A stretch of 64,000 nucleotides of DNA from Chromatiaceae bacterium (GCA_025458165.1 JALOTB010000024.1:811-64810); one strand, 5' to 3'. Positions 24,949 through 37,700 are shown, counted from the stretch's first letter. Numbers and translations are program-made. The notes: generated by a model not told the origin, from the letters alone.

Positions 24949-26751
24949 ATGCACCCGCCGCCGGCACCCGATCTCCCCGCCGACGCCGTCGCGATCCGGC
25001 GGCTGCGGGTGCGTGCCGCGGCCGCCGCCGGCGCTTCGGCGACGGACCGTCAGGTCCGTCGGGCACTGACCGAGACGAACTGGCCGCGACCCGCCGGCGA
25101 GGCCTGGGTGCTGCTGCGGTCCGTCACAGCACAAGCCCGGACGCCGACCGGCATAGGCGCGGCGGCGGCGCGCGCGGTCGCGGCTCAGATCGCCGCTGCG
25201 GTGGACCTCGGCGATCCGGCCGCCGCGCAGTCCGACGCGGTCTGTGCGCGCGATCGCGACCTGCTGATCGCGTATCTGGCGCGCGACCTGGCCCTCGGCC
25301 AGGCCAGGTCGCGCTGGTACTGGCGCCCCTGGGCCGCGCTGCTCGCCCTGCCGGCCGCGACGGCGCTGCGCGACCTCCTGGCCGGGCAACCGGCGCGGCT
25401 CGCCGCGGTCACCGGCGGGCTTGCGGCGCTCGGGGCGCTCGCGCCCGTCTGGCAGGCGCTGACGGCCGACGCCGCCGACGACCTGCTCGCCCGGGTCGCG
25501 CATGCGCTCGGGCTGCACCTCCCCGCCGCGCCGACCACGGCGGACGTGACGGCCCCGGACGACACCCCGGCGGTCCCCCTGGCCCTGGTCGAGCGCTGGC
25601 GCCCGGCGCTCGCCGGTCTGCCCGAGACCGACGCGCGGACGCGGCTGGCCGTCCTGCTGATGACACTCGAATGGCGACCGCTCTGGCTGACCGCTGACAC
25701 CGCAGTCGCCTCGACCGCGCGACGGCTCGCGGCGGTTGCGGCGGATCTGCGCGGCGCCCCGCGCCCGGCGGGCGCGCTGCCGCCGGGGCGAGTCCCAGGC
25801 ACGGAGCGGACGCTGGCACCGCCAGCGGCGACTGGGCCCCTGTCCAACCCGCCCGCGCGGTGGACATCCGACCCCTCGCCGACAACGGCCGCGCCGGCTG
25901 CGCTGTCCCCGCCGGCCCGGCCGGTCGGGCTGGGGCCGGGGTCGCCCGCCGCTCCCGAGCGCGTTCCCAGCCCCCCGGCCGCGGGTGCGCCGCCCCCCGC
26001 GACCCCAGACCCTGAGCAGGACGGCGGGGACGCGACCGGCAGCGGCGTGCCGCCCACCGCGGCCGGGGCCGACCAGCGCCCCTCCCCGACCCTGGTACCG
26101 ACGCCGCTCCCACCCACGACGGTCCCGCGCCACTCGGACCTCGACCGGCTGCGGGTTCGCGACAGCGGGGCCGCGCCGGCGCCCCACCCGACCGCGACGC
26201 CGGCGGCGGCACCCGGTCCGGCCGGGTCGGCGGCCCGGTCAACGCCCGTCCCCGCGCTTTACACCGGCGAGGGCGGCCTGTTCTACCTGATCAACTTTCT
26301 GGCCCGCCCCGAGGCCCAGGCGCTGCTCGCCGCGCGGGCGAGCCGGACTGACGCCGACGGCTGGGTCTGGCTCTACGGGCTCGGTCGGCGACTGGGGCTC
26401 GACCCGGCCGGGGCGCTCGCGGCCTTTCTCGCCGATCAACGCCGCGCCCCCTGGCCGCAGGACGCCGACACCGATGCCCTGCTCGACCGCCTCGCCGACC
26501 TCGGCGCCCGACTTTACGGCGGGGCGGACGCGTCCGACGACGGGGCGCGCGACCTGTGGGGACCCAGCCTGCTCGCGGTCCCGGCGCTGGTCGAAGCCGG
26601 TCCGAGCCACCTGGACATCCGCTACCCGCTCACCGGGGTGCGGCTCGCGGTGCGCCGCGTCGCGCTCGACGTGAGCCCCGGCTGGGTGCCCTGGCTCGGA
26701 CGGCTGATCCGCCTGCACTACGTCGACCCCTGGCCCGGCCCGCCGCGATGA
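24949..26751 (+). CDS. hypothetical Pro/Ala-rich protein (positional candidate for an Afp14-like tape measure or assembly factor)
   Basis: 600-aa ORF. An in-frame TGA immediately upstream fixes the start. The stop overlaps the ATPase start (ATGA). The central region is very Pro/Ala-rich. The C-terminal ~170 aa look globular (GGLFYLINFLARPEAQ ...). Confidence 0.5.
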   Translation: MHPPPAPDLPADAVAIRRLRVRAAAAAGASATDRQVRRALTETNWPRPAGEAWVLLRSVTAQARTPTGIGAAAARAVAAQIAAAVDLGDPAAAQSDAVCARDRDLLIAYLARDLALGQARSRWYWRPWAALLALPAATALRDLLAGQPARLAAVTGGLAALGALAPVWQALTADAADDLLARVAHALGLHLPAAPTTADVTAPDDTPAVPLALVERWRPALAGLPETDARTRLAVLLMTLEWRPLWLTADTAVASTARRLAAVAADLRGAPRPAGALPPGRVPGTERTLAPPAATGPLSNPPARWTSDPSPTTAAPAALSPPARPVGLGPGSPAAPERVPSPPAAGAPPPATPDPEQDGGDATGSGVPPTAAGADQRPSPTLVPTPLPPTTVPRHSDLDRLRVRDSGAAPAPHPTATPAAAPGPAGSAARSTPVPALYTGEGGLFYLINFLARPEAQALLAARASRTDADGWVWLYGLGRRLGLDPAGALAAFLADQRRAPWPQDADTDALLDRLADLGARLYGGADASDDGARDLWGPSLLAVPALVEAGPSHLDIRYPLTGVRLAVRRVALDVSPGWVPWLGRLIRLHYVDPWPGPPR

Positions 26752-28757
26752 GCCCGCCCCGCCAGCCGCCCGGAACCCGCGCCTGGGTCGCGGCCCTGGT
26801 GCACCACGGGGTCGCCGCCTTTGCGGCCGACACCCTCGGCGCCGACGACCCGCTCCTCGCCGCCCTGCGCGCAGAGACCCTGATCCACGGCGCCGCCGCC
26901 CTGCCCGGCGACTGGCCGGACCTGATCGAGGCGCTGGCAGCGGCCTGGCCGCTGACCGAGGGCCGGCTGGGGGCACTGCTCGCCGACTACCAACTGACGC
27001 CGGCCGAGCTCTTCGTCCTCGGCCTGGCCGGCACGGTGGAAGAGTCCCACCTGCTCGGGTTGGTGCTGGCGCGCCTCCAGGCACCGGCGGCACAGTCGCG
27101 TCCGACCCTTCACCTGACCCTAGCCCTGACCGCTGCCCTGTTCGGCCCCGAGGCCCGCTCCCTGCAGGGGCTACTGGCGCACCCGTTGCTGCGCGTCGGA
27201 GCGCTGCGGGTGGACGGCGACGGCCCGCTCCCGCTCGCGACGCTGGGCGTGCCACCCCCGCTCTGGGCGGTGTTGAGCGGGACCGCAACACCCTGGCCCG
27301 GCTGCGCACCCATCCTGAGGCCGGTCCCGGGGCTGCTACCGCGGGCGCTCGATCGCGAGCTGCCGAAGCTTGCGGCGTTGCTCGGAGGGAGCGATGCAGA
27401 CACGGCGACCGAGTGCGCCGGGCTGGTCCTGCGCGGCACCCCCGGCAGCGGGCGCGCGGCCGTCGCCGCGCTGCTCGCCGCGCGCCTGGGGCGCGTCGCT
27501 CTGGCGGTGCCGGTCGCCCTTTGGGAGCAGGAGCCCGCCCTCGCCGTCGCCTGCCGTTACGCCGGCTGGCTGCCGGTGCTGCGCCCGACGCTGCGCCCCG
27601 GCGAGCTCTGGCCGCTACCGGGACAAGCCGCGGCGGCACCCTCCGTCGTCGTCCTGGTGGGTATGGACGGCGCGGTGGGGGGGGCCGGGCTGGTGGAGCT
27701 CGACCTGCCGCCGCTGCCCGAGCCCGAGCGCCGCATCCTCTGGCAGGCGCGCCTCGGCGACCCCGAGCTGGCCGCCGTCGCCGCCCACGCCCTGCTCGCC
27801 GGTCCGGTGATCGAGGCCCTCGCCGGCCGCGCGCGGCTACTCGCGGCACGAGCCGGGCGGACGGTGTCGCTTGGGGATGTCGCCGATGCCCGTGCCCTGC
27901 TTGGCGCCGAACGGCTGCGATTGCTGGCGCAGCCGGTCGCGCGGCGGGTCGGCGCCGACGCCCTGGTGCTGCCGCCAGGGCTGACCGCGGACCTCGACGT
28001 GGTACTGCGCCGCTGCCGCCGCCGCGAGGCGCTCTGGCGGGGCCTGGGCGCGACACTCACGGCCACTGCGAGCCCAGGCGTGCGCGTGCTGTTGGTCGGC
28101 GAAAGCGGCACCGGCAAGACGCTCGCGGCGAGCTATCTCGCCACCGCGCTCGGCGCGCCCCTGTACCGGGTGGACCTGGCCGCGGTGATGAACAAGTACA
28201 TCGGCGAGTCCGAGAAGAACCTGGGCGCGCTATTGGACGAGGCCGCCGCGCACGACGTGGTGCTCCTGTTCGACGAGGCCGACTCCCTGTTCGGGCGACG
28301 CTCGGAGCGCAAGGAGACCGGCGAGCGCTACGCCAACATGCTGACCAACTTCCTCCTGACCCGCATCGAGAACCACCCCGGCCTGGTGGTGCTGACCAGC
28401 AACAGCCGCGAGCGCATCGACCCCGCCTTCAACCGCCGATTGGATCTGATCCTGGAGGTGCCACTGCCGGGCTTCGAGGAGCGCCGGCGCCTCTGGGCCA
28501 GCCACCTCGGCACCCGCGCCCCGGCAGAGACGCTCTGCCGGACGCTGGCCGCCCACTGCGAGCTCGCGGGCGGGGCGATCCGCAACATCGTACTCACCGC
28601 GGCCACGCTCACCGCGGCCGACGATGGCCCGCTGGACACCGCCGCACTGCTCATGGCGCTGCGGCTGGAGTACCGCAAGGCCGGTCGAGCGCCGCCGGCC
28701 GCGCTCGAGCGCCTGGCCACGGCGAGTGACGCCCCGCCGGGCAGGACCCCCGAATGA
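26748..28757 (+). CDS. AAA+ ATPase (Afp15/Pvc15-like)
   Basis: Walker A is VLLVGESGTGKTLAASYLA. YIGESEKNL is present. Walker B is VVLLFDEADSLFGRRS. LLTRIENHPGLVVLTSN and a sensor region follow. The start is at the ATGA overlap with the upstream gene. Confidence 0.88.
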   Translation: MSPPRQPPGTRAWVAALVHHGVAAFAADTLGADDPLLAALRAETLIHGAAALPGDWPDLIEALAAAWPLTEGRLGALLADYQLTPAELFVLGLAGTVEESHLLGLVLARLQAPAAQSRPTLHLTLALTAALFGPEARSLQGLLAHPLLRVGALRVDGDGPLPLATLGVPPPLWAVLSGTATPWPGCAPILRPVPGLLPRALDRELPKLAALLGGSDADTATECAGLVLRGTPGSGRAAVAALLAARLGRVALAVPVALWEQEPALAVACRYAGWLPVLRPTLRPGELWPLPGQAAAAPSVVVLVGMDGAVGGAGLVELDLPPLPEPERRILWQARLGDPELAAVAAHALLAGPVIEALAGRARLLAARAGRTVSLGDVADARALLGAERLRLLAQPVARRVGADALVLPPGLTADLDVVLRRCRRREALWRGLGATLTATASPGVRVLLVGESGTGKTLAASYLATALGAPLYRVDLAAVMNKYIGESEKNLGALLDEAAAHDVVLLFDEADSLFGRRSERKETGERYANMLTNFLLTRIENHPGLVVLTSNSRERIDPAFNRRLDLILEVPLPGFEERRRLWASHLGTRAPAETLCRTLAAHCELAGGAIRNIVLTAATLTAADDGPLDTAALLMALRLEYRKAGRAPPAALERLATASDAPPGRTPE

Positions 28758-31700
28758 GCCAGGCCGCCGCAATCAGCGTCAGCTCCCAGCCGGCGGCGGG
28801 CAAGGCGCGCGCGGCCCCTGCGCCCCCGGCGGCCGCCCCGATTGCCCCGGCCGTGCTGGCGGTACCGGCCTATCTCCAGGCCCGCTTCAAGACGCAGGCG
28901 CTGGTCCAACGCGCCCCGGCCGCCGAGCCCACAACGGTCGAGGACGAGGAGGTCCTGCCGGCCGGACCTGGGCTGCAGACCAAGATCGCGATCGGCCCGC
29001 CCGATGACCCCTATGAGCAGGCGGCGGATGCGCTCGCCGATCGGGTGCAGCGCGCCGCCGCCCCGGCGCCGGCGGTCCAGCGGGCGCCGCTGCCGGACGA
29101 GGCGTCATTGCCCATCCGGCGGATGGCACGGCCGGACGAGGACGAGCCCTTGCCGGTGCAACGGAAGGCTGGCGCACCCTGCCCGACCTGCGCGGCGGCC
29201 GGGGATCGTCTGCAGGCGAAGCCGGCTGGCAACGGCCCCGGGCCGGCAGCCACCGCGCCCGGACCGCAGGCCGGTCGCGCGCTGCACCGGGCGCTCGCGC
29301 AACCCGGCCCGGGTGCGCCCCTCTCCCCAACGGTGCGCGGGCGGGTCGAGCCGGCGCTCGGGGCTGACCTTGGCGCGGTTCGGGTCCACGCCGACGCCGG
29401 CGCCGCCGCCACCCGCGCGATTCAGGCACGCGCCTTCACCCATGGCCAGGACATCTGGCTCGGCGCCGGCGAGAGCCCGAACGACCTCGGCCTGATGGCC
29501 CACGAGGCGACCCACGTCGTCCAGCAGACCGGGCGGGTCCAGCGCAAGCCAGCCAACAACGGCGCCGCTGGCGGCGCCCCGGCGCGGGCCGGTGGTGCCG
29601 GTGCTGCGGGTGGTGCCGGTGGCGCGGCTGGCGCTGCCGCGGGTGTCAACGCCCAGACGGGTGGAGGCACGGGCGCCGGCGGCGGTGCGACCGCTGCCCA
29701 GCCGGCTTCGGCTGCCGGTGCTGTTACTCCAGCCGGCGCGGGCCTGGCAGCTCCTGCGGCCGGGGGGGCTGGCACCGGCCCGACGCTGTTGATGCCAGAA
29801 CCGCCGGCGGGGCTTTCGGCGGAAGAACAGGCGCGCATCGCCGAGGCCCAGGGCCAGGCCTCGGCGGCCGCCGAGGCCAATGCGGCGATGCCGCCGGCCG
29901 ATGCGGCGGTGGCCGATGCGCGAGCCGCGGTCGACGAGCCCGAGGCCGAGACCGCGGCCCGCGCGGCCGGTGAGCTCACCGCGACCCTCGGCGAGCGCGC
30001 CGCGCCCAGCCCCGAGATCGAGGAGCTTTGCGAGCGCATCAAAGGCGCCATCCGACGCCGCCGCCCGCCAGACGAAGACGCACTGGCCCAGTTCGACCCA
30101 GGCGAGGCGACCCAGGCCGCGGGTGCCGAGCTCAACAGTGCCGTCGAGGGCGACGCCGAGCGTGTCCAGGGCGACTACGACCAGTTAAACGAGACGCCAG
30201 AGGGCAGCCCCGAGCAGCAGGCGCAGCCCTTGGAGACCCCACCGGGGGCCGTCGAGACCCGGCCCGTCGAGGCAAGCCAGGCCGTTCCCGACGCGGTGCC
30301 GGCCGCAGACCTCTCGCTCGATGCCGATGTCGCCGCGAGCAGCCAACGCATCGAAGACGCCGGCATGGCCACCGCGCCCGCGGAGCTGATCACCGACCCG
30401 TCCAACCCCGTCACCCAGGCCCGCGAGGGGCAGACCGGGCTGGCCGAGGCGGCCGCGCGTGACCCGGTCGAGGTAATGGCCGAGCAGACCGCGATCCGCG
30501 ATCAGGCCCAGGGCGCCATGCGCACACTGCAGCAGCAGGCCCTGAACGCACTGCAGGCGTCGCGCGCGGCGACTGCGAGCGGGGTCGGCAGCGGCATGGT
30601 GAGCCTGGGTGACACCGAGGAGCAGATGCGCGCCAACGCGGGCGCCGAGGCCCAGCGCATCTTCAGCGAGGCGCAGACCCAGGTCAGCAGCCTCCTCGAT
30701 CCGCTGCCGCAGACCGCGATGCAACGCTGGGAGACCGGCATCCGCGTCCTCTCCACCCGGGTCGAGCAGGAGTCCGAGGAATTCAACCGGTGGAAGGCCG
30801 AGCGCTATTCGGGCGTCGGCGGCGCCGTCCTTGGCGTCGTCGAAGGCGTCGTCGGCATGCCCGACTGGGCCATCCGCTGGCTCAACGGCATCGAGGAGCG
30901 CTTCGGCAACGATGTCTGCGATCTGGTCCGCGAGATCTCCTCGGAGGTCAACACGGTCGTCGCGACCTGCGAAGAGATCATCGACAACGCCAACCGGCAG
31001 ATCGCAGCGGTCTTCGCGCAACTCCCGACCAGCCTCCAGGATTGGGCCGCCGGCGAGCAGGCCAACTTCAGCGCGCAACTGGAGGGGTTGCGCGAACGGG
31101 CCCACAACACCCGCAACGACTTCAATCAGCAGCTCTCCCAACAGGCCGCCCAGGCCGTTCAAGAGGTGCGTGAGCGCATCCACGCGATGCGCGAGGAAGC
31201 CCAGGGGCTGCTCGGGCAGATCGCCAATGCCATCGAGCGCTTCGCCGAGGACCCGGCCAAGTTCATCATCGAGGGGCTGCTCAAGCTCGTCGGGATCGCC
31301 GCATCGGCCTTCTGGGCCTTGGTCAACCGCATCGGTCAGGTCATCGAGGACATCGCCGATGACCCGATGAACTTCGCCAACAACCTGGTGCGGGCCATCG
31401 GCCAGGGCTTCCAGCGCTTCTTCGACAACTTCGCCAACCACATTGTCAGCGGTTTCTTCGACTGGCTGTTCTCGGGCCTGGGCTCGGTCGGCGTGCAATT
31501 GCCGACCGACTTCTCCCTCGGCAGCTTGATCACCTTCTTCCTGCAATTGATGGGGATCACCTGGGCGCGGATTCGCCAGATCCTTGCACGACACATCGGC
31601 GAGCAGAATGTCGCCCTATTGGAGAAGGCCTATGAGCTGATCGCCCTGCTGATGGAGCGCGGGGTCGATGGCATTTACGAGATGATCCGCGAGCAGTTGA

Positions 31701-32971
31701 ATCCGCAGACCATCCTGGATGCGATCCTGAGCGCGGCGGTGGACTTCCTGATCGACGCGCTGATCCGTGCCGTCACGCCGCGGATCATCGGGCTGTTCAA
31801 CCCGGCCGGCGCGATCATCCAGGCGATTGAGGTCATCTACCGCGTCCTGGCCTGGATCTTCAACAACGCCGCACGCATCTTTAGTCTGGTCGAGACCGTC
31901 GTCAACGGCGCGGCAGACCTGATCGCCGGCAACGTCGGCGGCATGGCCACCGCCATCGAGGGCGCGCTGGCACGGCTCATCGCCCCGGTGATCGACTTCC
32001 TCGCCGGCTTCCTCGGCCTCGGCAACCTCCCGGATCGCATCGCCGACACCATCCGCGGCTTCCAGCAAATGGTCCTCGCCGCAATCGAGCGGGTGGTCGC
32101 CTTCCTGGCCGAGCGGGCAAGGGCGTTGTTGCGGACGTTAGGGATTGGTGGCGGCGGGGAAGACGACACTGAGGACGAGCTCGAAGGCGTCCAGGCTTTG
32201 GCGAGCAGTGCAGTCCGAAGCCGGCTAGCCGCTGGTGCTGACGAAGCGGAGGCGCGTGGCATCCTGCGGCAGATCGAGAATGACCTTCGCCCGAACGGCC
32301 TGAAAAGTCTGGAGCTGGGCACAGCGGATGCCCACGGCAACATACCCATCTTCGCTGAGGCGAGCCCCAAGAAGCTCGTCAACAAGCTCGTTGACAAGAA
32401 CGTGACCGTCGCTCTGCACGCGACCATTACGATGCATGAAGAAGAAGACCTCATTCCCGCTGGTATAGCCAACGAGGGCGAGTCGCTGAGCTTCCGCTTC
32501 AGTGAACTAGCGGCCGGTGGTCGTCGACTCGGTGACGATCCGAGCGCTACAGAGCGCCGACAGATATTTCACGGTCTTGGCGGCACAGGCCGGGAAACGC
32601 CGCTTCCGGCGGTCTCGCAGCAGGCGCGCGGTCGGGGATGGCAGCCGTCTGCTGGGCTTATTCTGGAACCGCGCCCAGGGGCTCCATTGACCGTGTTGTC
32701 GTGGAATACCAGTCAGCCCAAGGGGAGCGATAATGTATCCCACGCGGAGACCCAGTTTTTGGAATGGTTCGATCACCGCCCGCTGGCCTGGCGTAGGAGA
32801 GTTAGCCGCGTGCAGGTCGTTGTTGAGGGGCGACCGATTTGCGACCGTTGTCTGGGCTTTCTACAGGCTTCAAAGGCAAGATTTCTTAGTCTTCCGACCC
32901 CACCGTCACGGTCATTCGATTGGCGGGGACCGTCATCTGAGGAAGGCGACGACAAAGTTTTGGAGCGATGA
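28754..32971 (+). CDS. DUF4157 (HExxH) domain-containing polymorphic toxin or effector with a C-terminal deaminase-like module
   Basis: The N-terminus is of DUF4157 type (LQTKIAIGPPDDPYEQAADALADRV ... VRVHADAGAAATRAIQARAFTHGQDIWLGAG ... MAHEATHVVQQ; HEATH at nt 29501-15). A Gly/Ala linker and a conserved helical middle region follow. The C-terminus carries HAE (32741-49) and PICDRC (32834-51). The start overlaps the ATPase stop (ATGA). Confidence 0.85.
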   Translation: MSQAAAISVSSQPAAGKARAAPAPPAAAPIAPAVLAVPAYLQARFKTQALVQRAPAAEPTTVEDEEVLPAGPGLQTKIAIGPPDDPYEQAADALADRVQRAAAPAPAVQRAPLPDEASLPIRRMARPDEDEPLPVQRKAGAPCPTCAAAGDRLQAKPAGNGPGPAATAPGPQAGRALHRALAQPGPGAPLSPTVRGRVEPALGADLGAVRVHADAGAAATRAIQARAFTHGQDIWLGAGESPNDLGLMAHEATHVVQQTGRVQRKPANNGAAGGAPARAGGAGAAGGAGGAAGAAAGVNAQTGGGTGAGGGATAAQPASAAGAVTPAGAGLAAPAAGGAGTGPTLLMPEPPAGLSAEEQARIAEAQGQASAAAEANAAMPPADAAVADARAAVDEPEAETAARAAGELTATLGERAAPSPEIEELCERIKGAIRRRRPPDEDALAQFDPGEATQAAGAELNSAVEGDAERVQGDYDQLNETPEGSPEQQAQPLETPPGAVETRPVEASQAVPDAVPAADLSLDADVAASSQRIEDAGMATAPAELITDPSNPVTQAREGQTGLAEAAARDPVEVMAEQTAIRDQAQGAMRTLQQQALNALQASRAATASGVGSGMVSLGDTEEQMRANAGAEAQRIFSEAQTQVSSLLDPLPQTAMQRWETGIRVLSTRVEQESEEFNRWKAERYSGVGGAVLGVVEGVVGMPDWAIRWLNGIEERFGNDVCDLVREISSEVNTVVATCEEIIDNANRQIAAVFAQLPTSLQDWAAGEQANFSAQLEGLRERAHNTRNDFNQQLSQQAAQAVQEVRERIHAMREEAQGLLGQIANAIERFAEDPAKFIIEGLLKLVGIAASAFWALVNRIGQVIEDIADDPMNFANNLVRAIGQGFQRFFDNFANHIVSGFFDWLFSGLGSVGVQLPTDFSLGSLITFFLQLMGITWARIRQILARHIGEQNVALLEKAYELIALLMERGVDGIYEMIREQLNPQTILDAILSAAVDFLIDALIRAVTPRIIGLFNPAGAIIQAIEVIYRVLAWIFNNAARIFSLVETVVNGAADLIAGNVGGMATAIEGALARLIAPVIDFLAGFLGLGNLPDRIADTIRGFQQMVLAAIERVVAFLAERARALLRTLGIGGGGEDDTEDELEGVQALASSAVRSRLAAGADEAEARGILRQIENDLRPNGLKSLELGTADAHGNIPIFAEASPKKLVNKLVDKNVTVALHATITMHEEEDLIPAGIANEGESLSFRFSELAAGGRRLGDDPSATERRQIFHGLGGTGRETPLPAVSQQARGRGWQPSAGLILEPRPGAPLTVLSWNTSQPKGSDNVSHAETQFLEWFDHRPLAWRRRVSRVQVVVEGRPICDRCLGFLQASKARFLSLPTPPSRSFDWRGPSSEEGDDKVLER

Positions 32972-32978
32972 TTGACAA

Positions 32979-34013
32979 ATGAACAAATCCGGTATGCCTC
33001 CGTCTACATTGTGGTCGGACGAGCATCGCAAGCGCCTGTTTCTGATCCCGGAAGGCATTGAGTTACCTATCGGCGAGCTACGCTTGCGAACATCGGGAGG
33101 CCGTGACCGGTGGGTGCAACCTTCCACCGTTGCGCCTTACCAGGTTAGTGCAGACGTCGCATGCGCCTGGGCGCAGGCCGAGTTATCGAGCGTATCTCGC
33201 CAACTCGGCGGCAACCCGCGCCGCTCGTTCCCATCGGTACCGGCGCCCGAGCAGCCGGGGAATGCCTCAGCGGACGCCCCGGCGACCCCCGGCCTCGACC
33301 TCCTCGCCGCAATCACCGGCACCCCGCGGGCTGACCTGGACACCGGTGCGCTCGGCGCGGCACTGAAGCGCTATTTCGGTGACATCGGAGGCACCATCGC
33401 CGATGCCGTGAGCGGCGAGCCAGCGCGCATCGCGAGGGCCAAGGTGCGGATGGCCGAGTGGTCCGCGATTCTGCGTGCGCATGGCACGGAGGTCGGGGAG
33501 GCTGCGCCGGCGGGGACCCCATCGGGGCGAGTACCGACGAGCGAACCGGGGGCGCCCGAGCCGGCGGCGGGGGGCACGGCCACAGAGTCCGACTCGGGGC
33601 GGCCAGTCGGCGAAGTGGGCGGGTTGGCCGAGCGCCTGCATGCGCTGGCCGAGGACTTCCGGCGCCGCGCTGATGCGCTGGCCGCCGCACGCGAGACCCG
33701 CCCAGGCGCCGCCGCGACACCGGAGACCCGGTGCGCCGACAAATCCAGCGCCTCGGGAGTCGGTCAGCCGGCGGCCGCCGTCAGACTCGATCGGGCCGCC
33801 ACCGAGGCGCAAGCAACCGGTGAGCCATCCGAGGCGAGTGGGACAACGGGGTCGGCCGATGGTCCTGCGGCGACGGGCCAGCCGGAGTCTCCCTCCCACG
33901 GCTATACCCAGGCGGCCGCACTCGAGGCCCTGGCCGAGGGGCTCGAAGACGCGGCAACCGATGCCGCGGCCCGTCTGCGCGCGTATGCGGAAACACTCCG
34001 AGATCGCTCGTGA
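32979..34013 (+). CDS. hypothetical protein; candidate immunity or partner protein of the upstream toxin module
   Basis: 344-aa ORF starting 8 nt after the toxin stop. The first ~150 nt are markedly lower in GC. The rest of the protein is Ala/Pro/Glu/Gly-rich. No family was recognised. Confidence 0.45.
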   Translation: MNKSGMPPSTLWSDEHRKRLFLIPEGIELPIGELRLRTSGGRDRWVQPSTVAPYQVSADVACAWAQAELSSVSRQLGGNPRRSFPSVPAPEQPGNASADAPATPGLDLLAAITGTPRADLDTGALGAALKRYFGDIGGTIADAVSGEPARIARAKVRMAEWSAILRAHGTEVGEAAPAGTPSGRVPTSEPGAPEPAAGGTATESDSGRPVGEVGGLAERLHALAEDFRRRADALAAARETRPGAAATPETRCADKSSASGVGQPAAAVRLDRAATEAQATGEPSEASGTTGSADGPAATGQPESPSHGYTQAAALEALAEGLEDAATDAAARLRAYAETLRDRS

Positions 34014-34779
34014 CGGCCTTCCGCGGATGCCGACGCGCGTCGCTCGGCGATCCTGGCCCGAATAGCACGCAACGACCGCCCGGCTAGCGTTCGCCGGGAA
34101 ATTTGCTACGCTTGAGTCCAGACACCTCTGCCGTGGAAACCGCTGACGTCCGGGCCAGTCCCGGACCGCTGGGCCGCCCCAGGCCCGTTGGCGGGCGTCG
34201 ATGGCGGGGGATCGGCACCGGGGCTAAGCTGTCCGGCGCGAGGTTCGAGTCGTGAGTCGGTGGTATTCGTCGCAGGTCGCATCCGCTACCCCAGACAGCC
34301 GCCGTGACCGCGGCAACGAGCCGTGCCAACCGGCCGCGCGAATGCGGCGGCGACGCCCAGCCGGTCCTCCACAAGGTCCATCTCAGGGCTCTTCGGTGGG
34401 CCCTCAGCAAACGCCAACGGCGGAGTCGACCGGCGGTCGCAACGGGGCAGCGGCCGGCCGGCGTGTCCCCTACCCTTGATTGGTCCGCCCTCCGCCGGCC
34501 GGTCCCCGACGCCGCCCGATCGCTGAGAACGGCCCTATCGGTCGTCTGCGCCGCCGCCTCGCTCCTCGTGGGCGGCGGCATCCAGGTCCACCGCCTGCCC
34601 TGGCTTGGCCCGCTGATCGACGGTTCAGCCCACGAGGCCGAGCTGACCTCAGGGGTCGGCGTGAACCTCGCGGGCACCCTCGCACGCGCGACGCTCACGC
34701 TTTGGGGCGGCTTTGGCAAGGCCAGCGGACCGGGCAGGGATCGGCAGCCTCGGCTCGGCGCGCCTTACGCCTCCACGCG

Positions 34780-37700
34780 TCAGGCCGCATCCATCGCCAG
34801 CCGGCGCGCCCCGGCGAAGTCGGCCTTGCCGCTGCCGAGCTTGGGGACGACATCAACCCGGCGAATCTCCGCCGGAATCGTCAGAGGGCTCATCCCCGAG
34901 TCGATCAGGGCCTTGCGCAGGCCATCGGGGTCGATGTCGGCGGCCACCAGGAGCACGATCCGCTCGCCCTTCTTGGCGTCGGCGAGATTCACAGCGATGA
35001 GGTCGATGCCCGGCTCGGCGAGCACGCGCCGCGCCTGCTCCTCGACCTGGGAGAGACTCACCATTTCCCCGCCCAGCTTGGCGAAGCGCGAGTAGCGGTC
35101 GACGATGGTGAGAAAGCCGTCGGCGTCCTGGTGCCCCTTGTCACCAGTGCGGTACCAGCGCGTCCCGTCGAGCTCGACGATGGCCGCGGCGGTCTTGGCC
35201 GGGTCGTTGAGGTAGCCCTTCATCACCTGCACCCCGCCGATCAGGATCAGCCCGTCTTCGCCGGGCGCCAGCGCCTCCAGGGTGTCGGGATCGACGATGC
35301 GGAAGCTGGTGCCCGGCAGGGGCATCCCGACCGTCCCCGGGCGGTTACCCGCCTGCACCTGCCAGTCGTCGGTATCGAGCCGATCCGGCAGGTTGACGCT
35401 CGCCACCGGGGTGGTCTCCGTCGCCCCGTAGCCCTCGTAGATCGGCCTCTGGAACTTGAGCGCGAAGGCCTCGCGCACGTCGGGACTCAGCCGCTCGGCG
35501 CCGGCGACCACCAGGCGCAGGGACTCCAGCATCAGCGGGTGGATGCGCTGATTGCGGGTGTAGAGCCGCAGGAAGGTCGAGGTGCTGCAAAGCAGGGTGG
35601 CGCGGTGGCGGGCGATCACCTTCGCCGTCCCCGCGGCATCGGTGGGGTCGGGGTGGCAAACCATGGGGATGCCTTCGAGCAGCGGCATGAAGGTCGTCAC
35701 CGTGAGCCCAAAGGCGTGGAACAGGGGCAGGTTGGCGAGCACCAGGTCCTCGGACTCGGTGTTCAGCACATCGGCCACCTGCCGCACGTTGGCCATGATG
35801 TTGCGGTGGGTGAGCTCGATGCCCTTGGGGGTCCCCTCGCTGCCGCTGGAGAACAGGATGGCGGCGGTCGTCTCGGGGTCGACGGGGCGGCCGAAGAGCA
35901 GCATCAGCAGTCGAGCCGGTAGGACCGCGGCGGCGGCGAGCATCGCCAACCCCTCGACCTTGCCGATGCCGGCGCGGATGTCCTCCATCGGGTGGAGTGC
36001 GACCCCGTCGAACAGCGCGGCCGGGTCCAGGCCGCGGCCTTCGAGCTTCTTCAGGAACCGGCTGGAGGTGATCACCGAGCGGACCCCGGCGCTCGCCATC
36101 CCCGCGCGCAGCGACTCGGCGCTCGCGGTGAAGTTGAGGTTGACCACGGTGCGGCCCGCGAGCAGGGCCGCCATGTTGGCGATCGCCCCCGCCCCGCTCG
36201 CGGGCAGCAGGATGCCGACCCGGTCCCCGTCCGCGAGGCGGGCGATGCGGCGGGCGAAGAGGAGCACGGCGGCCACGAAGCGCCGGTTGGTGAGCGTCGG
36301 CCCGGCCGAGTCGATAACCGCGACCTGACCGCGGCGGCGAGCAGCCGTGGCGAGCCAGGTCTCGGGGATGCTCGGCAGGGTGTGCGCGTGGCTCTGCCAG
36401 GAGCTGACCGATAGCTCGAACACCGCCTGTTTGACCTGCTCGGCCCCGGTGGCGAGCGGCAGCGGGGCGCCAAAGGCCATGATCAGGTCGCGAGTGCGCC
36501 CGCCGCCGCGGCTCTCACGCAGACGGGCTCCGGCGTAGGAGAACCAGCTACCCCAGAGCCCGCGGAGATAAAAAGGCACGATGACGCCGCCGCTGGCGCG
36601 AGCGGCGGCGTGCTCGAATCCGCGCTTGAACTCGCCGAGCTGGCCGCTGCGGCTGATCGTCCCCTCGGGGAATAGGCAGACCACTTGCCCGTCGTCGAGC
36701 AGCTCGGCCACCTTGCCCAGGGATTCCTTGCTGTGGCCGCTGCTGATCGGCACCACGCCGAAGAAATCGAGGAACCAGCGCAGATACCAGCGCTCGTAGA
36801 TCCCGCGATACATTACGAAGCGCACCGGGCGCGGACTGCCCATCTGGACGATGGCCCAGTCGAGCCAACTGATGTGATTACCGAGCAGCAGCACACCGCC
36901 CTGCGGTGGTAGGTTCTTCAGCCCGATCACCTCCAGCCGGTAGCGCACCGCGAGCAGCCGCGACACCAGGAAGCGTACCAGCGACTGGGGCAACTGATAG
37001 AGGGTGTAGGCGGCGCCGATCAGGGCGATCAGGCCGAGTGCCGAGATGATCAGCCGGCTGCCGGTCTCGAACAGGGCCGAGGCCACGGTGAGCCCGAGGA
37101 AGGCGAGCATCACCAGGTTCTGGATGAAGTTGCTCGCCGCCAGCGTGCGCCCCAGCCCCTGCTCGCCGGCGTTGAACTGGATAAGGGCATTGAGCGGGAC
37201 GAGGAAAAAACCGCCCAGCACCCCGAGCGCGAAGAAGTTGGCCGCGTGGGCCCAGGCGCTCGGCAGACCCGGGAGCAGGAACAGCGCCGCGGCGATGCCC
37301 AGCGCCCCGATGGGGATCAGGCCGGTCTCGATGTGGCTGCGCGAGACCCGTCCGGCGATCACCGAGCCCAGGATGATTCCGATACCGGCACAGGCCATGG
37401 CCCCTTGGATCACCACCGTGTTGGTGACCCCAAGGGTCTCCTTGGCGAAGGCCGGGAAGGCCGCCAGCACCACCTGCGAGATCGCCCAAAACACCGACAG
37501 CCCGACGATCGAGAGCCAGATCACCTGGTTGCCGTAGGCCTCGCCGAGGTTCTCCGCGAGATACCGGCCGCGGCGGTAGCGCGCCCAGTCGAAGTGCATG
37601 CCCCCCGCCCCCGCCGGCTTACCGACCAGGCGATAGGCCATGAGGAGCTCGAGCACCGCGAAGGCGACCAGGAACCAGCCAATGGGGGCGATGAGCCCCA

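Follow-up and report, generated by a model that had tools for sequence, protein, structure and literature searches.

Exchange of a low-GC3 cassette carrying a deaminase-like toxin tip and the start of the adjacent gene in a contractile injection system operon of a Chromatiaceae bacterium

Does an abrupt fall in base composition near the 3' end of an injection-system operon mark an exchanged toxin, and does the gene behind that toxin serve as its immunity gene? The locus that raises these questions lies in a 64,000-nt stretch of a Chromatiaceae bacterium (GCA_025458165.1 JALOTB010000024.1:811-64810; hereafter the window, with positions counted from its first nucleotide), where an extracellular contractile injection system (eCIS) operon ends with the cargo (effector) gene P0001 and a 344-codon open reading frame (ORF), P0002. 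An initial annotation of the window had interpreted a drop in GC content at 32140-33130 as a swapped-in, deaminase-like toxin cassette that continued into P0002, the latter being offered as a candidate immunity or partner gene. Our analysis shows that nt 32140-33203 are a recombination cassette. We consider it likely that the toxin tail of P0001 and the first ~75 codons of P0002 were acquired together from a donor with a lower GC content at third codon positions (GC3), that P0001 is an eCIS cargo with an APOBEC-related deaminase tip, and that P0002 is an accessory protein, the locus having no dedicated immunity gene. Feature coordinates are collected in Table 1.

Raw GC content, measured in 200-nt windows, was 0.53-0.66 over 32200-33199 as compared to 0.76-0.81 at 29000-29900. 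The initial annotation had used raw GC to set the cassette apart from the upstream trunk of the gene, and the contrast holds at third codon positions, but raw GC itself is a poor marker, as it is already 0.585-0.665 in the conserved trunk at 30800-31900. When GC was split by codon position, first and second positions (GC1 and GC2) were lowered in this part of the trunk while GC3 was kept at 0.80-0.96. Since the amino acid composition of the trunk (hydrophobic residues) lowers GC1 and GC2 and leaves GC3 unaffected, a drop in composition is diagnostic only at third codon positions. GC3 was 0.52-0.78 from ~32130 to 33200 and was back to ≥0.80 at 33204, within P0002. A two-change-point, maximum-likelihood fit to the third positions of both ORFs placed the low-GC3 segment at nt 32140-33203, with a GC3 of 0.63 (352 codons) versus 0.85 elsewhere (1397 codons). 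The log-likelihood ratio was 40.5, and none of 100 permutations exceeded 10.5 (Fisher p = 2.7e-19). The sharp drop is thus real, and composition across the two ORFs is not uniform. Its start coincides exactly with that given in the initial annotation (32140), but its end lies at ~33200 and not at 33130; likewise, the cassette does reach into P0002, by about 225 nt (75 codons) instead of ~150 nt. The acidic linker GIGGGGEDDTEDELEG (32141-32188) and the 8-nt step from the toxin stop, across the spacer at 32972-32978, to the ATG at 32979 are present as described. On a genomic scale, the GC content of the cassette (0.601) falls among the lowest 1.9% of 1-kb windows of its own genome (4.69 Mb, mean GC 0.686).

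Sister loci, which we obtained via homologs of P0002, lose and regain DNA homology at the same places. L011, L014, L016, and L017 have trunk ends that are 83-96% identical to that of the window at the protein level, followed by different tails, and blastn aligns them with the window up to 32148-32159 and then again from 33198-33204 onward (from 33273 in L016). The GC3 change-points at 32140 and 33203 agree with these breakpoints to within about 10-20 nt. In a fifth locus, L015, a 1436-bp stretch that begins at window position 33204 and reaches the contig end matches the window with 98.3% identity; upstream of 33204 there is no homology, and what L015 encodes there is the last part of an L017-type tail together with a different N-terminal domain (N-domain) of its P0002 homolog. 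L015 is a near-conspecific with another cassette, and its pattern is that of a recent exchange. The encoded proteins form a mosaic that matches the DNA breakpoints: P0262 (L015) is essentially identical to P0002 past residue ~87 and clearly different in its N-domain, and P0263 (L010) shows the reverse. L010 is the syntenic ortholog of the window locus (same Aas-like and CopD neighbors) and carries the same cassette, with a tail that is 89% identical and an N-domain that is 74-81% identical, according to the alignment used. Identity between the window and L010 at four-fold synonymous sites is 0.74 in the trunk, 0.77 in the tail, and 0.72 in the N-domain; since these values are equal in effect, the cassette was already carried by the ancestor that the two loci share. 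Tails of the sister loci are also GC3-poor (0.58-0.82, as compared to 0.88-0.90 in the trunk). Beyond the cassette, the 3' part of P0002 (33204-34010) has 98% DNA identity to L015 and only 0.52 synonymous-site identity to the syntenic L010, where trunk and cassette have 0.72-0.77; a second exchange in the right-hand part of P0002 in one lineage follows from this contrast.

The conservation upstream of the 5' breakpoint extends well beyond these loci. With residues 640-1130 of P0001 as the query, 487 proteins were found, the best 120 of which are 56-82% identical over the whole region; sources of trunk homologs include Verrucomicrobiales, Chlorobiales, Nitrospira, Longimicrobium, and several cyanobacteria. 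In all of the best 120 homologs the trunk ends in ...LL(R/K)xLG(I/L)GG followed by an acidic stretch, after which the sequences diverge. Only 8 of these 120 bear a related tail (24-31% identity), and the C-termini of 119 trunk homologs fell into at least 48 unrelated clusters when the last 150 amino acids (aa) were compared. Clustering of whole tails was rejected, since shared pre-toxin modules chained one cluster of 71. Precomputed Pfam labels among the trunk homologs include AHH, Endonuclease_NS_2, Ntox15, and deaminases. A common N-terminal part that is followed, past a conserved junction, by unrelated C-terminal toxins is the arrangement of polymorphic toxins, and the conserved trunk with an exchanged toxin that had been proposed from the window is what the sister loci display: trunk ends that are 93-96% identical, unrelated tails, and DNA homology that breaks at the GC3 boundaries. 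Orphan toxin or immunity cassettes were not found in the genome, as tblastn searches with parts of the trunk, tail, and P0002 matched only this locus. For an effector, the trunk is unusually conserved and is rich in amphipathic/hydrophobic helices; Pfam gives no more than weak, apolipoprotein-like matches for it. It might act on membranes or in the manner of a tape measure, and DUF4157 effectors have been tied to tape-measure proteins (PMC11126660; PMC13277306).

When 1.84 billion representative proteins were scanned in full, 140 clusters of relatives of the exchanged tail emerged, the nearest being 54% identical. This trunk is carried by 76 of the 139 representatives that were fetched, and many of the others are fragments. 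In trunk-borne proteins, an N-terminal tail subdomain of ~110 aa always precedes this deaminase core. An alignment of 30 sequences contained seven invariant columns (tail numbering: G57, S79, H205, A206, E207, C238, and C241), the last five of which correspond to H1330, A1331, E1332, C1363, and C1366 of P0001 and form a deaminase zinc/catalytic signature as defined previously (PMC3239186). In an AlphaFold2 (AF2) model of the tail, with a predicted local distance difference test score (pLDDT) of 79, the order of elements fits a deaminase fold and the HAE and CxxC motifs lie at predicted helix starts. Pfam searches with the 30 relatives matched APOBEC_N and SNAD4 in 19 and NAD1 in 17. A profile of the tail family matched APOBEC3C (3vm8) with an E-value of 2.6e-7 and chains of APOBEC3B, 3F, and 3G with E-values of 1.9e-5 to 4.8e-4, and a profile of the tail's own subclade (6 sequences) aligned to residues 46-124 of APOBEC3C (E = 6.3e-6, probability 85%). 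The deaminase-like module of the initial annotation is therefore upheld, with its HAE and CxxC motifs invariant among homologs and its profile matches APOBEC-related. Judged from its sequence, the tail is a predicted deaminase-superfamily toxin related to the AID/APOBEC-like clade, though not a proven member of that clade.

Two further observations concern relatives of the tail. A core homolog that is 39% identical over tail residues 90-247 occurs without the bacterial trunk in a haloarchaeon, Salinigranum sp. (L008, 6001-6420), from which it follows that the toxin core crosses domains of life. At L014 (3-3857), a longer APOBEC-like tail, of the subclade with an SPCxxC motif (SPC subclade), has DAE in place of HAE (SDAERQF) and, by this substitution, is probably inactive.

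The gene behind the toxin, P0002, is real and belongs to a conserved ~300-aa family, as seen from 10 homologs of 285-351 aa at 44-86% identity and from four more loci, one of them in an organism of 44% GC. A homolog lies 3' of a DUF4157 effector in all nine loci whose contig reaches the effector, and it is the last recognizable gene on the + strand. Family members consist of the N-domain, a strongly conserved helical core, a variable disordered linker, and two conserved C-terminal helices; the Ala/Pro/Glu-rich part of P0002, initially described as low complexity, also holds three conserved helical blocks. N-domain identity is 74% to L010, which has the same tail, and 33-53% in most other locus pairs, core identity is 60-96%, and the N-domain outpaces the trunk in protein evolution at equal synonymous divergence. 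Searches of Pfam, NCBIfam, and PDB sequences found no relative of P0002 or of its N-domain, and a Foldseek search of the P0002 model against PDB gave nothing significant, only weak hints of a small barrel with E > 1. None of 60 related genomes contains the family, and it is also missing from nine deaminase-tail loci of other trunk lineages (L001-L009), where no conserved downstream gene was present. A role for P0002 as a second cargo, which had also been raised, is unlikely, considering that it lacks DUF4157 and matches no Pfam or NCBIfam family.

Is P0002 the immunity gene? In each of the six loci whose tail is not a deaminase, the toxin and the P0002 homolog are set apart by one or more separate genes. 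In L016, the interposed gene follows an unrelated non-deaminase tail and encodes a GAD-like/T6SS_Tdi1_C protein, which belongs to a recognized immunity family; the corresponding products are proteins of ~360-390 aa in L011 and L022, a 380-aa protein in L020, a 161-aa protein in L025, and a 128-aa protein together with an MNT/HepT pair in L024. No gene is interposed in the four loci with an intact deaminase tail (the window, L010, L015, and L017). In L014, with its DAE tail, only an MNT/HepT (NTP_transf_2/HepT-like_2) pair is interposed, and L024 has the same pair behind a different tail. A cognate immunity gene would co-vary with its toxin, and the N-domain type does not follow the tail type: the N-domains of L014 and L016 are 84% identical and their tails unrelated, L024 has a similar N-domain (by inspection) with a third type of tail, and L011 and L022 have tails that are 58% identical and N-domains that are just 40% identical. 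Because sister loci have interposed genes and because one N-domain type accompanies three unrelated tails, P0002 is probably not a cognate immunity protein; the initial proposal of such a role does not agree with a family that ends the operon whatever the tail type, and the doubt voiced alongside it, that this ORF is atypical for an immunity protein, fits the absence of matches to known immunity families. P0002 is more likely a conserved accessory protein of this eCIS sublineage. On the simplest reading, recombination uses the conserved core of the gene as its 3' homology arm and the N-terminal codons hitch-hike with the tail; P0002 may also be an adaptor, the other role raised initially. The probable lack of a dedicated immunity gene here agrees with previous reports. 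Deaminase toxins of Photorhabdus virulence cassettes (PVC) are reported to have a PVC metallopeptidase at the N-terminus and to 'entirely lack associated immunity proteins' (PMC3239186), and most eCIS toxins are likewise described as having no immunity gene (PMC8213781).

How do other explanations compare with joint acquisition of the tail and the start of P0002? A cause other than exchange might be sought for the composition drop, given the purely amino acid-driven GC dip nearby at 30800-31900 and the faster protein-level evolution of tails and N-domains. However, the drop sits at third codon positions and has sharp limits, these limits fall, to within about 10-20 nt, where DNA homology to sister loci is lost and regained, and the remainder of P0002 regains a GC3 of ≥0.8, so that we find such a cause very hard to credit. 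Several points do weigh against our explanation. With regard to a donor of the cassette, the nearest tail is only 54% identical. The tail itself falls below every Pfam gathering threshold (no family at E ≤ 0.01; the best match is OTT_1508_deam, E = 0.11-0.16), and members of its short subclade, which have GRP-I/V-CxxC in place of SPCxxC, score 12-19 bits against Pfam cut-offs of 25-27. P0001 stops 14 residues past strand 4 (~14-25 in the subclade), without helix 4, strand 5, or helix 5; the helix-4 division of deaminases is characterized by an extended strand-4/helix-4 loop, helix 4, strand 5, and a helix-5 motif (PMC3239186), and the SPC subclade keeps the elements past strand 4 while the short subclade is without them throughout. 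Foldseek searches with the whole AF2 model of the tail against PDB and BFVD gave no significant or deaminase match, and the short subclade, without helix 4 and strand 5, may not have an intact catalytic fold. The tail might then be a decayed or non-catalytic deaminase-like module, e.g., a binding domain that has lost the C-terminal half of the AID/APOBEC fold, as its early end, the absence of Foldseek and Pfam matches, and the DAE motif of the sister tail in L014 would allow. What speaks against decay is that no member of the short subclade has lost any of the five catalytic/zinc residues, with overall identity at 37-54%, which argues for purifying selection on catalysis; in addition, AF2 models the tail's N-terminal subdomain with high confidence, and this subdomain may make the sheet complete. 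We consider decay unlikely. As to the C-termini of the short subclade (32927-32968 in the window), they comprise an acidic loop and then a short alternating hydrophobic motif (VLE, LEV, LDV, or VEL) that might be a strand pairing with strand 4, substituting for helix 4/strand 5; AF2 models it as a short helix instead.

The remaining alternative concerns the N-domain. N-domain GC3 tracks tail GC3 in five of six loci, and this co-variation, which also counts against our explanation, could reflect functional coupling instead of hitch-hiking. P0002 would then be a cognate inhibitor (immunity protein) or a tail-specific chaperone/adaptor acting through its cassette-borne N-domain (~75-90 aa), with the C-terminal part docking to the machine or its ATPase, and the cassette would be a true toxin-partner exchange unit. 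Consistent with such a role, P0002 begins 8 nt past the toxin stop, and its N-domain lies inside the cassette both by GC3 and by homology and evolves faster than the trunk at equal synonymous divergence. In addition, the window and L010 have both tail and N-domain in common, as do L015 and L017, and a gene is interposed in none of the four intact-deaminase loci as compared to all six non-deaminase loci. Nevertheless, the N-domain is one homologous fold at all loci regardless of toxin chemistry; its type 'c' (84% identical) occurs with an Ntox15-like, an APOBEC-like, and a third unrelated tail; L011 and L022 depart from each other more in the N-domain than in the tail; the P0002 family is missing from the nine deaminase-tail loci of other trunk lineages; and no Pfam/NCBIfam immunity family, PDB sequence, or PDB fold was matched. 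A dedicated partner is, in our judgment, rather improbable. The same doubt applies to the specific form in which the exchange unit is a two-part specificity module, whose N-domain recognizes the neighboring tail (as a pre-loading inhibitor or a loading adaptor) and whose conserved helical part binds the machine. If true, however, it would account for deaminase-tipped eCIS cargos doing without a separate immunity gene, and it would represent a modular design, 'swap toxin and handle together', not described for eCIS. Joint acquisition, with the N-terminal codons of P0002 hitch-hiking, remains the explanation that we prefer.

The setting of the cassette is a complete eCIS operon, similar to antifeeding prophage (Afp) and PVC systems, on the + strand from ~1638 to 34013. 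Its genes encode a Pvc16_N cap, sheath, two gp19-type tubes, CIS_tube, GPD hub, gp25, Baseplate_J, Tail_P2_I, fiber-region proteins, and an AAA+ ATPase, and a sigma-54 activator gene lies upstream. P0001 consists, in order, of an Ala/Pro-rich N-terminus (the first 188 aa are Ala/Pro/Gln-rich), a DUF4157 zincin-like domain, the long conserved trunk, the acidic linker, and the variable toxin tail. With a DUF4157 domain that contains HExxH, and with a 3' position in a complete eCIS operon that includes an AAA+ ATPase, P0001 has the hallmarks of eCIS DUF4157 cargo. Its architecture matches the published layout of eCIS-associated toxins, in which DUF4157 is followed by a linker that can exceed 1000 aa and then by the toxin at the C-terminus (the deaminase EAT11 is among them; PMC8213781), as well as that of Cgo1/2, lumen cargos of AlgoCIS in which the AAA+ ATPase loads DUF4157 cargo via a disordered N-terminus (bioRxiv 10.64898/2026.05.27.728243). 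By analogy, we infer that P0001 is a lumen cargo and that its Ala/Pro-rich N-terminus is the loading signal. Of 61 genomes from the bacterium's family or class (its own and 60 relatives), just one had the P0002 family. Because that family is so restricted, as by implication is this eCIS sublineage, the whole operon is probably a horizontally acquired island.

The 5' crossover of the exchange lies in the conserved LGIGG/acidic linker codons and the 3' crossover just upstream of the conserved core of P0002; the tail and ~75 codons of P0002 probably arrived jointly and have not yet reached host composition. As suggested by the literature on related systems, the AAA+ ATPase would load the unfolded cargo into the tube and contraction would inject it into a target cell, where, possibly after processing by the DUF4157 zincin, the tail would refold and deaminate cytosines of target DNA or RNA. 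Candidate means of protecting the producer are fast loading while the cargo is unfolded, expression shortly before the cell lyses, autoinhibition of the tail through its own N-terminal subdomain, or the N-domain of P0002.

Table 1. Locations of the cassette and associated features within the window
Feature	Position	Strand	Content or basis
Low-GC3 exchange cassette, ~1.05 kb	32140..33203	+	Toxin tail, spacer of 7 nt (32972-32978), and first 75 codons of P0002; change-points, homology breakpoints, genome GC rank
GIGGGG and acidic linker GIGGGGEDDTEDELEG, 5' crossover zone	32141..32188	+	blastn homology of L011, L014, L016, and L017 ends at 32148-32159
eCIS cargo/effector P0001, 1405 aa	28754..32971	+	Translation, Pfam, 487 homologs
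eCIS_core (DUF4157), aa 189-260, HExxH = HEATH	29318..29533	+	PF13699, E = 2.8e-20, 72.7 bits (cut-off 22)
Conserved hydrophobic/helical trunk, aa 640-1125, ending ...LLRTLGIGG	30671..32128	+	Homolog identity, junction motif, GC3 0.80-0.96
Tail N-terminal subdomain (two helices, three strands; GLKSL...AEASP motifs)	32168..32434	+	AF2 pLDDT 90-95 over tail residues 20-70
Deaminase core	32546..32926	+	Model elements: helix 1, strands 1-2, helix 2 (HAE), strand 3, helix 3 (CxxC), strand 4
H1330-A-E1332, predicted zinc ligand and catalytic glutamate	32741..32749	+	Invariant in 30/30 aligned homologs
C1363-D-R-C1366, two predicted cysteine zinc ligands	32840..32851	+	Cysteines invariant in alignment
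P0002, 344 aa, conserved terminal gene of this eCIS sublineage	32979..34013	+	Homologs at 44-86% identity, 285-351 aa
Fast-evolving N-domain of P0002 (four strands and helices)	32979..33203	+	GC3 0.60-0.72; AF2 pLDDT >90 for residues 10-60
Conserved helical core of P0002 (TPGLDLLAAITGTPRADLD...HGTEV), 3' homology arm	33285..33491	+	Invariant columns; sister DNA homology resumes at 33198-33273
Afp15/Pvc15-like AAA+ ATPase	26556..28757	+	Pfam AAA, E = 6.7e-27; stop overlaps effector ATG (ATGA, 28754-28757)

Other elements near the cassette were also considered. Two small ORFs, at 32733-32975 (+) and 32507-32776 (-), were rejected as hidden immunity genes, being out of frame within the conserved toxin frame, and Rfam, promoter, and terminator scans of 31500-35200 gave nothing useful. 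The region from P0002 to the convergent Aas-like gene (34014-34780) has DNA identity of 78-82% in L010, L011, L016, and L017 and 98% in L015. There, tblastx segments switch frame between blocks, unlike a single intact protein frame, gene callers put different ORFs on different strands at the sister loci, and no Rfam match was obtained.

Shuffling of toxin tips is a known bacterial mode, and the accepted picture of polymorphic toxins is unchanged by our results. The locus does provide a nucleotide-resolved example of eCIS cargo diversification, in which one interphylum scaffold has at least 48 tips swapped at a fixed linker, and it sharpens the question of how producers tolerate deaminase cargos without immunity genes. 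Two of its features are of moderate interest, namely, the C-terminally short APOBEC-related subclade and the 3' crossover inside a conserved operon gene. Bacterial AID/APOBEC-related deaminases have been proposed as ancestors of eukaryotic mutator enzymes, and the literature that we examined does not report an enzyme assay on any bacterial protein of this clade; a compact, ~130-aa member without the usual C-terminal half could interest enzymologists and developers of base editors. Attention is also drawn to P0002, an uncharacterized, conserved ~300-aa operon protein.

Among known systems, the closest in layout are the DUF4157 eCIS effectors, EAT11 of Amycolatopsis nigrescens (Geller et al., 2021; PMC8213781) and AlgoCIS Cgo1/Cgo2, which likewise have an N-proximal DUF4157 with HExxH, a >1000-aa linker, a C-terminal toxin, and no recognizable immunity gene. 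P0001 differs from these in its distinct, extremely conserved 490-aa trunk module and in its deaminase clade, and at this locus the exchange breakpoints are mapped to the nucleotide and a conserved gene for a ~300-aa protein lies downstream of the effector. Polymorphic toxin systems (Zhang et al., 2012; PMC3482391) and PVC deaminase toxins (Iyer et al., 2011; PMC3239186) similarly combine a conserved N-terminal part with a recombining C-terminal toxin, with many toxin types per scaffold. In contrast to polymorphic toxin systems, the locus has neither a cognate immunity gene nor orphan cassettes in the genome, and its 3' crossover falls within a conserved neighbor gene, which is thereby made chimeric. 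The AID/APOBEC-like deaminases (APOBEC_N, SNAD4, and NAD1/2, including PSEBR_m1207 and Wolbachia B3gp45; PMC3239186, PMC5889660) have HAE and CxxC motifs with the same spacing as the tail, and profile similarity extends from strand 2 to strand 4. Unlike these, the tail has GRP-I/V-CxxC, a stop soon after strand 4 with no extended loop, helix 4, strand 5, or helix 5, sub-threshold Pfam scores, and a ~110-aa N-terminal subdomain of its own. Finally, DddA/DddI and SsdA, interbacterial DNA deaminase toxins of type VI secretion systems (T6SS; PMC7901873), likewise feature a polymorphic protein that is delivered and ends in a deaminase toxin, but DddA and SsdA belong to another deaminase clade (the C-terminal hairpin division), are delivered by the T6SS, and have a dedicated immunity protein encoded adjacent to the toxin.

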